Source of the DNA: Escherichia coli | Lineage (GTDB): Bacteria; Pseudomonadota; Gammaproteobacteria; Enterobacterales; Enterobacteriaceae | Length of the DNA: 64,000 bases | Direction: 5' to 3' (one strand) | Assembly: GCF_013122565.1 (NCBI RefSeq) | Contig: NZ_CP053258.1 | In this document: positions 39,036 through 63,950 of the stretch, piece after piece | How positions within the stretch are numbered: the stretch's first letter is position 1 | Layout of the letters: each line of letters begins with the position of its first letter | Made by a program: the position numbers and the translations under genes | The notes under the pieces: model-generated | Databases searched by the model: none | Seen by the model: the letters and a program-made list of their open reading frames with translations, nothing else | What the model was told of the DNA's origin: nothing

Positions 39036-40622
39036 ATGGCACATCCACCACGGCTTAATGACGACAAACCGGTTATCTGGACGGTATCTGTAACGCGCCT
39101 GTTCGAGCTGTTTCGCGATATCAGCCTCGAGTTTGATCACCTGGCGAACATTACCCCTATTCAGCTTGGCTTTGAAAAAGCAGTGACCTATATCCGCAAG
39201 AAACTGGCAAACGAACGCTGCGACGCCATCATCGCTGCTGGCTCTAACGGCGCGTACCTGAAAAGCCGCCTGTCAGTGCCAGTTATTTTGATTAAACCGA
39301 GCGGCTACGATGTGTTACAGGCACTGGCAAAAGCCGGAAAGCTCACCTCTTCTATCGGCGTTGTCACTTATCAGGAAACTATTCCGGCACTGGTGGCGTT
39401 TCAAAAAACCTTTAACTTGCGCCTCGATCAACGTAGCTACATTACCGAGGAAGACGCACGCGGGCAGATTAACGAGCTGAAAGCTAACGGCACCGAAGCG
39501 GTGGTCGGCGCGGGGCTGATTACCGATCTGGCAGAAGAAGCCGGAATGACCGGAATTTTTATCTATTCCGCCGCCACCGTGCGCCAGGCATTCAGCGATG
39601 CGCTGGATATGACGCGCATGTCGTTACGCCATAACACTCACGATGCCACCCGCAACGCCCTGCGTACTCGTTACGTGCTGGGCGATATGCTCGGTCAATC
39701 ACCACAGATGGAACAGGTGCGGCAGACTATTTTGCTGTATGCCCGCTCCAGTGCAGCGGTGTTGATTGAGGGGGAAACGGGGACGGGCAAAGAGCTGGCG
39801 GCCCAGGCGATTCATCGGGAATATTTTGCCCGCCACGATGCGCGACAGGGCAAAAAGTCGCATCCGTTTGTTGCCGTCAACTGCGGGGCGATTGCCGAAT
39901 CGCTGCTGGAAGCAGAGCTGTTTGGCTATGAGGAAGGGGCGTTCACCGGCTCGCGACGCGGAGGTCGCGCCGGGCTGTTCGAAATTGCCCACGGCGGTAC
40001 GCTGTTTCTGGATGAGATTGGCGAAATGCCGCTACCTTTGCAGACTCGCCTGTTACGGGTGCTGGAAGAAAAAGAGGTCACCCGCGTCGGCGGGCATCAG
40101 CCTGTTCCGGTAGATGTACGGGTCATTAGCGCCACTCACTGCAATCTGGAAGAAGATATGCAGCAAGGACGTTTTCGCCGTGATCTGTTTTATCGGCTGA
40201 GTATTTTGCGTCTGCAATTGCCACCACTCCGCGAGCGGGTGGCGGATATTCTGCCGCTGGCGGAAAGCTTTTTGAAAGTGTCTCTGGCGGCGCTCTCCGC
40301 CCCGTTTTCTGCCGCATTACGCCAGGGATTACAGGCAAGCGAAACCGTGCTGATGCACTACGACTGGCCGGGCAATATTCGTGAACTGCGCAATATGATG
40401 GAGCGACTGGCGCTGTTTTTAAGTGTGGAACCGACGCCGGATTTAACGCCGCAATTTTTGCAATTGCTACTGCCGGAACTGGCGCGCGAGTCGGCGAAAA
40501 TTCCCGCTCCACGCTTACTGACACCACAACAGGCACTGGAGAAATTTAATGGCGATAAAACAGCAGCGGCGAATTATTTAGGTATCAGCCGGACGACGTT
40601 CTGGCGGCGGCTGAAAAGCTGA
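39036..40622 (+). CDS. prpR: Sigma54-dependent activator of the prp operon
   Basis: 528 aa from [15 protein letters not shown]; AAA+ GETGTGKE Walker A and GAFTGS motif; C-terminal HTH. Confidence 0.92.
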
Positions 40623-40660
40623 ACTGCCGAATGCAGCGCGAACGCTTTATCCGGCATAAA
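40623..40660. repeat. REP-like palindromic unit between prpR and yahO
   Basis: gccgaatgcagcgcgaacgctttatccggca resembles REP consensus. Confidence 0.4.
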
Positions 40661-41832: not shown

Positions 41833-42078
41833 CTACGTAATCAACCTGATTTGCCGAATCCCGACCATCGGCGATGATAGCCCCCGTAATGCGTGGTCCT
41901 TATTTCCGATAAGTTTACTTGAGTCTTTAGCTTCCCATTTCAGCCCACTCTCCCCTGTGTGGGCTTTTTTCATTGGTCTGACCCGTCCTGAATAGCCAAA
42001 CAATGGCAATGTTCCACTTTGCAGGGATGATAATAAGGGGATCTGATTCAGAAGAGTTTTGAAAAGTTGGACCGCCAT
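41833..42078 (-). CDS. yahM: Small uncharacterized ORF at the K-12 yahM position
   Basis: 81-aa ORF from MAVQLFKTLLNQ; assigned only by length and synteny; contains a hairpin plus T-run on the opposite strand, so coding status uncertain. Confidence 0.35.
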   Translation of the reverse strand: MAVQLFKTLLNQIPLLSSLQSGTLPLFGYSGRVRPMKKAHTGESGLKWEAKDSSKLIGNKDHALRGLSSPMVGIRQIRLIT

Positions 42079-42490
42079 CGAGGCCTCGAACCCCGTACCA
42101 TACAACAATCCTGGTTGTCGTCTGCTCTTCCTGATGAGCTAATGGCGGTTTTTGATATGAGCCTTACAGCATATTTTCTGTCAGGCTTGAGTGCGATGCG
42201 TAAGATACAGAAAAGACCCCACACAAACATGATGGAATTATGATTTTTTTCATATGAATGTCAACCCACACATTCACAAAACATCTGCATAAGATCATTT
42301 TTTATACCCCGCATGGCTGCGAAACCACTGCTGGTGCTTTTTTAAGCGAATTGTCGCCGATCACAACAAAATATCGGCGAAAAAAGAGATGGAATGCCAG
42401 TTAGCATACAGATATACAGATGAAATGATTACCTGCATTGCGATTCACTCTCTGGTGGAATAACAACTTGCAGGTGGAACCCTTTCTGAA

Positions 42491-43306
42491 CTAAAGAGTG
42501 TAGCGGATTTTAACGTGCTTATTTACAGGATAATATCTGTCACCTAATTCCTGCACTCTATTAGATATCCATTCATTTAATCGTGCGTCATCTCTGTATG
42601 TTTTTACGTCCAGAACAGAGAGCAATAACATCACCAGTGATTCAGGAAAAACAGGGTAGATATTTTTTAAGTGTAATAATAATCCATGCGCAAGCGCCTG
42701 CTTAATGGGCGCGTCTGTCTCCGGAATAGACGACATTTCGCGAAGCCATTTTTCCACATGCATACACTCTTTCCCTTTAGGGAAAAGTCTCAGCAAAGGC
42801 ATATGGTGTTCAAGAAGAATACATTTGCAATCTGTTCGCACTGAATCGATAAACTGCACTAATTTCTTAAGCCCGGTAAAGCGTCCAGCCTGCACGTTTG
42901 CTTTAATATCAAGAAACGCATCATCCTGGTCATATACCCAAACTGTCCCTTTTTGATTTTCAAGTATGCGAAAAACAAACTTAACCGGGTGATCAGGGTA
43001 ATCCATCCAGTCATAAAATCCAGGGAAATCATTAAACTGCACATTTATGGTGAGTGCGTTATCGTCTGACCACTCACAGTCTCGTACGGCAGCCATGAGA
43101 TGAATGAGTTTGTCGTCATCGACTAAATCATCACGACAATCATAAGGATAATCATAATATTGTTTAATCAAAACCTTGAATATATCGACACAGGAAACCA
43201 GGGAGCTTTTGATATCCTCTGGTAACTGATTGTTTTTAACCGTATTAAGTATGCTTTGTTGCGTGTATGGCATCAAATTATTGTGCGGAGCTTTTAATGA
43301 TATCAT
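42491..43306 (-). CDS. yahL: Uncharacterized protein YahL
   Basis: 271 aa, AT-rich gene with no recognisable domain; K-12 synteny and length match. Confidence 0.75.
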   Translation of the reverse strand: MISLKAPHNNLMPYTQQSILNTVKNNQLPEDIKSSLVSCVDIFKVLIKQYYDYPYDCRDDLVDDDKLIHLMAAVRDCEWSDDNALTINVQFNDFPGFYDWMDYPDHPVKFVFRILENQKGTVWVYDQDDAFLDIKANVQAGRFTGLKKLVQFIDSVRTDCKCILLEHHMPLLRLFPKGKECMHVEKWLREMSSIPETDAPIKQALAHGLLLHLKNIYPVFPESLVMLLLSVLDVKTYRDDARLNEWISNRVQELGDRYYPVNKHVKIRYTL

Positions 43307-43475
43307 CGCGATCTCTCTTAAATAAAAATAAACGTCGCAGATAATAAAGCTCTGATTAAACCAGGCACTATCAGAAATCGCTCATAACTAACGTATGAAG
43401 TATTGTGTACTGGAGGGAGTTAATTTAACAATTTGAATTTACGTTATAGGTTTTACCACTACTTTGATATTATTT

Positions 43476-43509
43476 CGCTCTCCTTAACTAAAAAGTTAAG
43501 TGGAGAGCG
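43476..43509. other. Long hairpin (cgctctccttaact aaaa agttaagtggagagcg) downstream of yahK
   Basis: 14-bp stem with one mismatch in AT-rich spacer between yahK stop and yahL start. Confidence 0.4.
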
Positions 43510-43548
43510 AAGTTAATATGTTAAACCACCGGGTATTTATTAATTTTT

Positions 43549-44869: not shown

Positions 44870-45517
44870 TTACCCCGCAAAAGAAACACGCAATAACTTT
44901 AACTGCCCGTTAATAATGCCAAATTCCAGTATAGTTGTGCCATCACAAACAGCCGGTGGAATTTGTTCATTAGCCTGCGAGCCAATATTCAGCGTAATGC
45001 CATCGTCAGAAATATTCCCCGACATCGCCAGTTCACATATTCCCGTGACGTAGTGGCGCTCCCCTTTCTCTTCGTAATAGAAACGTCCATCATTGAGGGG
45101 ATAATATTTTCTTTTTTGCTCCGCTGGCGTCAGCGAATGACTGAGATAATCATCAATCCATTGGGTACCCGGATGTATCGTGAATTTTGTGACATTATGC
45201 AGACGCCGCATAATGGTTTCTGAATGGCGATCAAATAGTGCTTCTGTGAAGGGTTCAGATTCAGGAAACTCAATCTCAGCGAGAAAGCCGAAATAGGTAT
45301 CGTAGGGGAATTTTAAGAAGGTTTTTAGTTTCGTGGCATTCTTTGCACTCAGCGCTTGCTGAAACTTTTGCAATTGCGTTAAGGCATCTTTTTTCTGCTC
45401 TGGCGTGACCAGGGGCTGTATGCGCACCGCCTCGCATTCGTGTTGTGAATTTCCAGCAGGGCAAGTTGCCAGGACGGCCTGACTCAGAAACAACAGCGAT
45501 AACCAAAGAAATCTCAC
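44870..45517 (-). CDS. Hypothetical secreted protein (signal peptide, four Cys), no recognisable domain
   Basis: 215-aa ORF starting MRFLWLSLLFLSQAVLATCPAG (signal-peptide-like); AT-rich codon usage distinct from flanking yahK and yahJ. Confidence 0.55.
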   Translation of the reverse strand: MRFLWLSLLFLSQAVLATCPAGNSQHECEAVRIQPLVTPEQKKDALTQLQKFQQALSAKNATKLKTFLKFPYDTYFGFLAEIEFPESEPFTEALFDRHSETIMRRLHNVTKFTIHPGTQWIDDYLSHSLTPAEQKRKYYPLNDGRFYYEEKGERHYVTGICELAMSGNISDDGITLNIGSQANEQIPPAVCDGTTILEFGIINGQLKLLRVSFAG

Positions 45518-63857: not shown

Positions 63858-63911
63858 CTGTCGCTATATCTAAATGAATTTATAACGAGACTACTGTCAG
63901 GCAATTCAATA

Positions 63912-63950
63912 AATAATGGCGTTGAAGATGTCAACGCCATTATTGTTTAT
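63912..63950 (+). terminator. Rho-independent terminator after the AraC-family gene
   Basis: aataatggcgttga agatg tcaacgccattatt, a 14-bp perfect stem followed by gtttatt. Confidence 0.7.

Follow-up and report, generated by a model that had tools for sequence, protein, structure and literature searches.

Among the systems closest to the locus described here are the xenogeneic silencing of AT-rich genes by H-NS in Escherichia coli, together with the suppression of intragenic promoters by the same protein (PMC3923964, PMC8894471), and the cluster of tRNA genes that lies downstream of gene Q in lambdoid phages. The gene at the centre of this report, yahL, is a known and annotated y-gene that is uncharacterised, and published data already cover its high AT content, its occurrence in E. 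coli and Shigella only, its occupancy by H-NS and its de-repression in hns mutants. YahL, YdjO and YjfZ have been presented as E. coli/Shigella 'conserved signature proteins' and are used as qPCR markers, and a BLASTp survey placed all significant YahL hits in E. coli and Shigella (PMC11057252). The new points are two, a deletion allele that removes yahL and an unannotated tRNA-like element close to it; the remainder is a known gene behaving in a known way.

Setting and base composition of yahL

In the window (the whole 64-kb stretch of DNA that was analysed, a segment of an E. coli chromosome) the genes run in the order prpR (+), yahO (-), yahN (+), yahM (-), yahL (-), yahK (-) and yahJ (-). 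The open reading frame between yahM and yahK encodes 271 aa and is yahL, with 99% identity to the gene of E. coli K-12.

42491 to 43306, minus strand: yahL coding sequence (open reading frame list; K-12 match 99%; G+C 0.393; dN/dS 0.156; AlphaFold models)

An earlier note on this DNA had described yahL and its flanks as markedly AT-rich, and calculation agrees, with 39% G+C against 53% and a place in the lowest 1% of same-sized windows. The G+C content is 0.393 in yahL, 0.425 in the yahM-yahL spacer and 0.322 in the yahL-yahK spacer, compared with 0.532 for the 64-kb window, 0.529 for yahK and 0.553 for prpR; for the 1470-bp block at 42079-43548 it is 0.390, a value equalled or undercut by just 0.96% of windows of that size within the 64 kb. 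Third-position G+C is 0.39 in yahL as against 0.53-0.68 in yahK, prpR and yahJ, and because the first and second positions are low too (0.51 and 0.28) the composition of the YahL protein itself is AT-driven. Further AT-rich valleys lie near 55.3 kb and 62.5 kb, so the yahL valley is not unique in the window.

H-NS occupancy and silencing

The K-12 copy of yahL occupies 344176-344991 (U00096.3), and two H-NS-bound regions in the ChIP-seq set E-MTAB-332, 344355-344451 and 344531-345085, overlap it, with binding extending 94 bp beyond the end of the gene (PMC8894471); H-NS thus covers most of the coding sequence and 94 bp downstream. The published list of H-NS-bound genes includes yahD, yahE, yahF and yahL and leaves out yahK and yahM (PMC8894471). 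The U00096.3 numbering is confirmed by the agreement of the Forrest list of H-NS-bound genes, the coordinates in the y-ome paper and the K-12 locus, and subtracting a K-12 position from 387482 gives its place in the window, the alignment with K-12 being free of internal gaps here.

42397 to 42951, no strand: main H-NS-bound segment (mapped from K-12 344531-345085; Forrest et al. 2022, Supplementary Data 3)
43031 to 43127, no strand: second, shorter H-NS-bound segment (mapped from K-12 344355-344451; Forrest et al. 2022)
43396 to 43440, minus strand: H-NS-repressed yahL promoter (start site 43396, 90 nt upstream of the ATG, in the hns mutant only)
42437 to 43143, no strand: span of the intragenic start sites unmasked without H-NS (K-12 cappable-seq; Forrest et al. 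2022)

Deletion of hns in K-12 changes yahL RNA by a log fold change of 4.39 (P = 8.7e-21), which ranks the gene about 36th in the table sorted by fold change; the values for its neighbours are 1.06 for yahK and 0.72, not significant, for yahM (PMC8894471). The rise of 4.4 amounts to about 20-fold, provided that the value is a log2. Cappable-seq of the wild type gives no plus-strand start site between 342986 and 345252, and hence none for yahL, and the hns mutant gains TSS_344086_+, which is present in the hns-deletion and hns-deletion/pRok columns and absent from the wild-type column (PMC8894471). Upstream of this start site (43396 in the window) the sequence reads as weak TTGTTA-18-CACAAT elements. 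Inside the gene, sense start sites appear in the hns mutant only at K-12 344339, 344496 and 344683/4 (+), and antisense start sites appear without H-NS at 344668, 344938 and 345045 (-), with logFC 5.9-6.8 (PMC8894471). Independently of these data, genomic SELEX places a strong in vitro peak of RNA polymerase holoenzyme (sigma28, sigmaE, sigma32) within yahL; the gene is not named in the promoter-island paper. In window positions the unmasked sites fall at about 43143, 42986 and 42799/42798 (sense) and at about 42814, 42544 and 42437 (antisense). The pattern TCGATAAATT, an H-NS high-affinity motif, has two 9-of-10 matches in yahL, at 42846 and 43179, and 10 such matches in the whole window against 4.5 expected; the matches within the gene are suggestive only.

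AT content, ChIP occupancy in K-12 and de-repression by hns deletion in K-12 together place yahL in the class of H-NS-silenced genes. The conclusion is supported by K-12 evidence transferred to the 99%-identical copy here, and the silencing proposed in the earlier note is upheld on three counts, by bound regions over yahL in the published ChIP data, by RNA-seq and by start sites confined to the hns mutant. In K-12, H-NS binds the AT-rich coding sequence itself and, in the wild type, blocks both the weak promoter that starts transcription 90 nt before the ATG and promoter-like sites within the gene on both strands. The de-repression seen in the hns mutant can be partly indirect; the overall pattern, in which a filament covers the coding sequence and shuts off a real promoter along with spurious ones inside the gene, is textbook H-NS control.

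Distribution, loss and predicted structure of YahL

An HMMER search of 1.84 billion representative proteins recovered E. coli YahL copies and fragments and one distant relative (P0027), all of them in Escherichia, and the result was the same when 5.8 billion proteins were searched by word index. The designation of yahL as an orphan gene is therefore apt in that no homologues beyond Escherichia occur among the 1.84 billion representatives. Two other apparent distant hits, P0009 and P0010, are not true relatives, one being a chimeric protein and the other an E. coli read with a frameshift. P0027 is 24% identical to YahL over the full length (HMMER E 1.8e-11), and its host genome is E. coli, with uxuAB genes 99.2% identical to those of the species. 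Its gene sits in an islet of 34% G+C within a region of 55% G+C, lies 1-7 kb from genes for an inverse-autotransporter adhesin and for a type III secretion system (T3SS) chaperone and translocator, and is missing, at megablast sensitivity, from all 5426 complete E. coli genomes.

In a scan of one genome per species, yahL was found, besides E. coli, in one divergent Escherichia lineage (locus L006) whose yahK has 88.9% nucleotide identity. The gene there is at the same position and its product has 80% amino-acid identity, with dN 0.110, dS 0.705 and dN/dS 0.156, compared with a dN/dS of 0.020 for yahK; the full 271-aa frame is preserved in the window and K-12 copies as well as in variants at 88% and 80% identity. 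Judged from these substitution rates, YahL is under purifying selection, and with a syntenic copy in so divergent a lineage the gene is old within Escherichia. The gene has held the same position between yahK and yahN since before E. coli diversified, and its confinement to Escherichia in the HMMER search together with the dN/dS of 0.156 marks it as a taxonomically restricted protein-coding gene.

Among the 5426 complete E. coli genomes yahL is present in 4021, and an identical junction, joining window position 42477 to 43313, is found in 1073 (about 20%).

42478 to 43312, no strand: 835 bp deleted in about 20% of complete E. coli genomes (alignments with strain EC9682)

The 835 bp comprise the yahL coding sequence with 13 bp downstream and 6 bp upstream, leaving the AT-rich spacers and the upstream hairpin in place, and there is no evident microhomology at the junction. 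Because the divergent outgroup carries yahL, the loss is most simply explained as a single later deletion, and because that one event removed the gene in a lineage that now makes up about one-fifth of complete genomes, yahL is dispensable. The gene is the same as that in the signature-protein paper (PMC11057252), and the label 'conserved' is overstated there, since at least 1073 of the 5426 complete genomes lack it by a clean deletion; the deletion allele undercuts yahL as a universal E. coli/Shigella qPCR marker.

No recognisable domain had been noticed in the product, and this stands: nothing rises above threshold in Pfam, NCBIfam, PHROGs, PADLOC or PDB sequences, including a PDB sequence profile, and there is no match to an effector family. 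The Pfam match to SDH_protease is sub-threshold (E 0.0018, 17.8 bits against a cut-off of 31.3), as are those to WWE_5 (E 0.046) and DUF2931, and all were dropped. DUF2686 (YjfZ/YjiC), of similar length and from a nearby AT-rich islet, was also considered, and the DUF2686 protein compared has no sequence similarity to YahL. The size of YahL and its place upstream of the tRNA-like element raised the idea of a divergent antiterminator Q, which was rejected for want of an Antiterm hit; the Q proteins of phages that carry the related element hit PF03589 (Antiterm) at 1e-38 to 1e-54 and YahL does not, BLASTP between YahL and these proteins gives E 0.56 or worse, and the zinc-finger/Antiterm domain is missing from YahL.

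YahL would be a soluble protein, modelled by AlphaFold with a polar and disordered stretch at the N-terminus, then an alpha/beta (helix-on-sheet) domain and, at the C-terminus, a helical domain (a helical bundle); of residues 1-30, 15 are S, T, N, Q or P and one is acidic. This polar stretch and the T3SS chaperone and translocator genes near that of P0027 are no more than hints at a type III secretion effector. Structure prediction, which the earlier note had proposed, thus yields a compact fold, with a confidence that is moderate to low (pLDDT 63 for the whole protein and 78 for the N-domain, the other four models scoring near 45) and only generic fold matches, so any statement on the activity of YahL is a guess. 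Our own best guess, a weak one, is that YahL may be a niche accessory protein tied to virulence or secretion and not a housekeeping enzyme, which would act only once silencing is relieved under some condition. A transposon insertion in yahL emerged from a capsule screen and failed to validate.

Hairpins, the tRNA-like element and the origin of the segment

43474 to 43511, minus strand: strong hairpin (folding z -7.2 to -7.6; 38 nt beyond the stop codon of yahK; no U-tract)
42351 to 42383, no strand: weaker inverted repeat in the yahL-yahM spacer, TCGCCGAT...ATCGGCGA (repeat I15; fold z -2.3)
41942 to 41971, plus strand: yahN intrinsic terminator, AGCCCAC...GTGGGCTTTTTT, inside the yahM open reading frame (fold z -4.6)

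Long hairpins flanking yahL had been read as a further mark of acquired DNA. The one singled out at 43476-43509 is real and slightly longer than first given, a stem of 10+6 bp with a 2-nt bulge that folds at -21 to -22 kcal/mol compared with -5.5 to -6.4 +/- 2.1-2.2 for shuffled sequences, none of 200 shuffles being as stable. The plural is less secure, as the repeat at 42351-42383 is marginal (its arms are conserved in the divergent lineage and the surrounding spacer is not) and the stem at 41942-41971 is the terminator of yahN. Nor does the interpretation survive: the strong hairpin lies 38 nt past the yahK stop codon, with at least 78 nt between it and the start site of yahL further downstream, it is retained in strains that lack yahL, 98% of cells are paired on the yahK-sense strand across four lineages, and both substitutions in the divergent lineage give G-U pairs on that strand only. 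It is most likely a stem-loop at the 3' end of yahK, and neither part of the yahL unit nor an island boundary. It resembles intrinsic terminators as a stable stem-loop soon after a stop codon and differs from them, and from the canonical yahN terminator, in having no U-tract; no T-run follows the stem on either strand, and the terminator scan returned 0 sites. Its G+C content of 0.35 is joint-lowest, with that of 63901-63946, among the hairpin clusters listed of the 164 in the window at -19 kcal/mol or better.

Three further features lie downstream of yahL.

42068 to 42148, minus strand: unannotated tRNA-like element (ARAGORN call; fold; phage and plasmid relatives; 81/81 identity in the divergent lineage)
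42237 to 42264, minus strand: near-consensus sigma70 promoter TTGACA-16-CATAAT (11 of 12 matches in the scan; start site 42230)
41833 to 42078, minus strand: annotated yahM (81 aa), coding status doubtful (frame broken in the divergent lineage)

The element has a full cloverleaf with acceptor, D and T arms and an encoded CCA, and its anticodon arm is aberrant, with a 7-bp stem and a 6-nt loop. Because the loop has 6 and not 7 nt, and because the Rfam tRNA model failed to hit a 231-nt segment even with the threshold at E <= 10, we refer to it as tRNA-like; an Rfam scan of 40.5-45.7 kb found no family match save a sub-threshold REP-like naRNA4 at 40598-40656. It is 77-86% identical to an element of the tRNA clusters downstream of Q or a DNA methylase gene in lambdoid phages, with relatives in phiP27, mEp460, TL-2011c, Yersinia YeP1-3 and an E. 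coli phage-plasmid. IMG/VR holds genuine phage tRNA-Arg(UCG) relatives as well as a widespread decayed subfamily with the same D-loop deletion and arm remodelling, and by these alignments the element is related to the lambdoid-phage argN-type tRNA or pseudo-tRNA. The phage cluster is ileZ-argN-argO, a naming used in 933W. Like the argN-type tRNA-Arg(UCG) of that cluster downstream of Q (as annotated in phiP27) and like the decayed 'tRNA-OTHER' copies of many prophages, the element shares the acceptor, D and T arms. It differs from the cluster in standing alone with its own near-consensus promoter, active in the wild type, from most phage pseudo-copies, which are degraded, in keeping an intact T-arm and acceptor stem, and from the argN type in its 7-bp/6-nt anticodon arm; the element as a whole is invariant across about 10% genomic divergence. 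In the divergent lineage it is identical at 81 of 81 bases with flanking DNA at 70-90%. We also observe that the element is better conserved than the neighbouring genes.

The promoter and the element occur together in 5165 of the 5426 genomes (95% of E. coli), at 99% identity or more in 4697. The promoter's start site is 82 nt upstream of the element, and it drives both this and 'yahM'; the corresponding K-12 site, TSS_345252_+, appears in the wild-type cappable-seq column (PMC8894471), and a Reg-Seq preprint confirmed the yahM promoter and reported IHF as a repressor. The yahM frame overlaps the tRNA-like element and encloses the yahN terminator, yahM-yahN being catalogued as a convergent excludon. 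In the divergent lineage the frame carries stop codons and indels (+4, -1, -1) that break it, in DNA that is still 90-97% conserved, and this one outgroup suggests that the stretch may be a conserved RNA rather than a YahM protein. We can go further and imagine 'yahM' as a domesticated phage-derived non-coding RNA that, with yahL, is perhaps one of two survivors of a single ancient lambdoid-phage-derived insertion, a doubtful proposal. The sigma70 promoter would then give a transcript with an 82-nt leader ahead of an argN-type cloverleaf whose CCA is encoded and whose anticodon arm is remodelled, the tRNA-like module would be under strong purifying selection (81/81 across about 10% divergence; 95% of E. 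coli), and of the two pieces yahL would now be silenced by H-NS and the RNA constitutively expressed. If true, 'yahM' is misannotated and a new chromosomal RNA gene of phage origin is present in the best-studied bacterium.

A foreign origin of yahL is plausible but unproven. The horizontal acquisition that had been claimed for it fits the composition, the restriction to Escherichia and the presence/absence polymorphism, and is left without a donor, vector, integrase or att repeats for a gene that is old and syntenic. The open reading frame list holds no integrase or transposase between yahN and yahK. YahL has no relatives in 50,697 phage records, IMG/VR or natural plasmids, the plasmid matches to yahL being F-primes or mislabelled chromosomes, and no donor lineage or mobile vector emerged from the phage, IMG/VR, plasmid and protein searches. 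The sole pair of flanking direct repeats (D1, 17 of 22) is at chance level and off the deletion boundaries, and was discarded as a pair of attachment sites. Neither an integrase or transposase nor bounding repeats, then, mark the locus as an island or prophage remnant, and the adjacent tRNA-like element is a phage-type pseudo-tRNA and not a host tRNA target. On our reading the AT-rich segment would derive from an unsampled pool of AT-rich genes and have been taken up by an ancestor of Escherichia, and the adjoining phage-type relic hints at a lambdoid phage as the possible vehicle.

A stronger version of this history makes yahL the final piece of cargo from a decayed lambdoid prophage or phage-derived insertion between yahK and yahN, of which the promoter and tRNA-like element are what remains of the ileZ-argN-argO region downstream of Q. 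The 77-86% identity of the element to those in phage tRNA clusters is in keeping with this, as are the derived one-base D-loop deletion and remodelled anticodon arm that it shares with the phage subfamily and the size of Q, which lies just upstream of the phage element and at 272-273 aa matches YahL. We nonetheless consider it unlikely, as YahL is not similar to Q proteins and lacks their zinc-finger/Antiterm domain, no phage record or IMG/VR contig carries a YahL relative, the likeness to phages ends at the 81-89 nt element, and there is no other phage gene, integrase or attachment site at the locus; yahL and the element could also have come separately.

It is rather improbable that yahL was never transferred at all and arose or diverged within Escherichia, its AT-richness resulting from long silencing, low expression and AT-biased mutation. 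Such an origin would fit the stable, syntenic position across lineages with a dS of about 0.7, the lack of a mobile-element signature or a flag in the HGT databases, and a published argument that, following transfer, AT base pairs build up locally (PMC7054387). It fits poorly with the existence of a full-length paralogue of 24% identity, carried by a rare E. coli strain in another AT-rich islet, which suggests that the YahL family is older and wider than the yahL locus, and with the low G+C at first and second codon positions (0.51, 0.28); the predicted folded two-domain architecture of 271 aa also speaks against recent de novo birth.

That yahL is a decaying, functionless open reading frame with an inactive product, junk tolerated since H-NS keeps it silent, is very improbable, for even if the gene has been lost without obvious cost in 1073 of 5426 genomes, has no detected start site in wild-type K-12 and encodes a protein with no known domain whose capsule-screen transposon hit was not validated, a dN/dS of 0.156 over a dS of 0.7 indicates sustained purifying selection, the 271-aa frame is unbroken in this copy, in that of K-12 and in the 88%- and 80%-identical variants, and a compact fold is predicted.

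We therefore hold it highly probable that yahL is a real coding gene restricted to Escherichia that acts as a classic target of xenogeneic silencing. Compared with the usual H-NS-silenced loci it is set apart in being one gene only, at a constant chromosomal site where no island, prophage or fimbrial/virulence operon can be recognised, and it departs from the usual xenogeneic silencing targets in that its score in the HGT databases consulted by Forrest et al. is 'horizontally acquired: no' (PMC8894471). In other respects it conforms to what has been described for E. coli (PMC3923964, PMC8894471): as in xenogeneic silencing, the gene is AT-rich and its coding sequence, not the promoter alone, is occupied by H-NS, and as in the suppression of intragenic promoters, it is strongly de-repressed and acquires both sense and antisense start sites without H-NS. 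The locus thus offers a compact, single-gene case in which H-NS within a coding sequence suppresses a genuine promoter together with spurious intragenic ones.

The yahL deletion and a neighbouring orphan

Two segments that bear on the variability of this locus are given below.

42478-43312: clean deletion of 835 bp, removing exactly the yahL coding sequence with flanks of 13 bp (downstream) and 6 bp (upstream)
44870-45517, minus strand: open reading frame of 215 codons between yahK and yahJ, 45.5% G+C

The identical deletion junction is present in 1073 of the 5426 complete E. coli genomes surveyed, and no microhomology was found at it. In EC9682, the only genome with the deletion allele that was aligned, an 11-nt segment of the yahL promoter region is also absent. 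Published work treats yahL as a qPCR marker universal to E. coli/Shigella. The N-terminus of the 215-aa product of the second segment resembles a signal peptide, and the product matches no Pfam family. Because the yahK-yahJ spacer of K-12 is about 650 bp shorter and contains only an annotated 75-nt gene fragment, this reading frame is another strain-variable orphan adjoining yahL.

A distant relative of YahL

Only one distant relative of YahL was found in any search, a 275-aa protein (P0027) with 24% identity, encoded at the following position.

L004 10001-10828: P0027 gene, E. coli GCA_009799345.1, contig WTUQ01000002.1

The gene lies in an islet of 34% G+C, with yjiG on one side and an iatC-like gene for an inverse-autotransporter adhesin on the other; genes for type III secretion chaperones and translocators are a few kilobases away. 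At megablast sensitivity it was detected in none of the 5426 complete genomes.

Other AT-rich and structured sites

A nearly perfect 17-bp palindrome, TACTATAGGGGGGTATGC...GCATACCCCCCTATAGT, lies at 2727-2772; at -31.9 kcal/mol it is the most stable 46-nt hairpin among those listed, with a G+C content of only 43%. Besides the yahL region there are two AT-rich valleys, at about 54.7-55.9 kb and 62.1-62.9 kb, where G+C in 1-kb windows reaches minima of 0.35 and 0.41 respectively; the second valley would be the counterpart of K-12 324494-325220, a region published as H-NS-bound, if collinearity with K-12 extends beyond the yahL region. Directly past the end of prpR, 40598-40656 (minus strand) matches the Rfam family naRNA4, a nucleoid-associated RNA derived from REP sequences, but scores below threshold (26.9 bits versus a gathering score of 59.5); this site is probably a REP element.

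yahM and a tRNA-like element

Four features are located in and next to yahM.

41833-42078, minus strand: yahM, annotated coding sequence, overlapping the tRNA-like element
41942-41971, plus strand: yahN intrinsic terminator, inside annotated yahM
42068-42148, minus strand: tRNA-like element lacking annotation, a cloverleaf whose CCA end is encoded and whose anticodon arm is aberrant
42237-42264, minus strand: near-consensus promoter of the tRNA-like element, start site at 42230

In a divergent lineage with a syntenic yahL (L006) the yahM frame is disrupted by indels of +4, -1 and -1 as well as by stop codons, and a 152-nt block of the region (41866-42017) retains 97% identity; judged from these alignments, conservation here looks to be at the RNA or DNA level and not at the protein level. 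All 81 bases of the tRNA-like element are unchanged in that lineage, where the adjoining genes are 83-89% identical, and 95% of the complete E. coli genomes carry the element. The promoter upstream of it is active in wild-type K-12. The homologue of the element in lambdoid phages is their argN-type tRNA or pseudo-tRNA.
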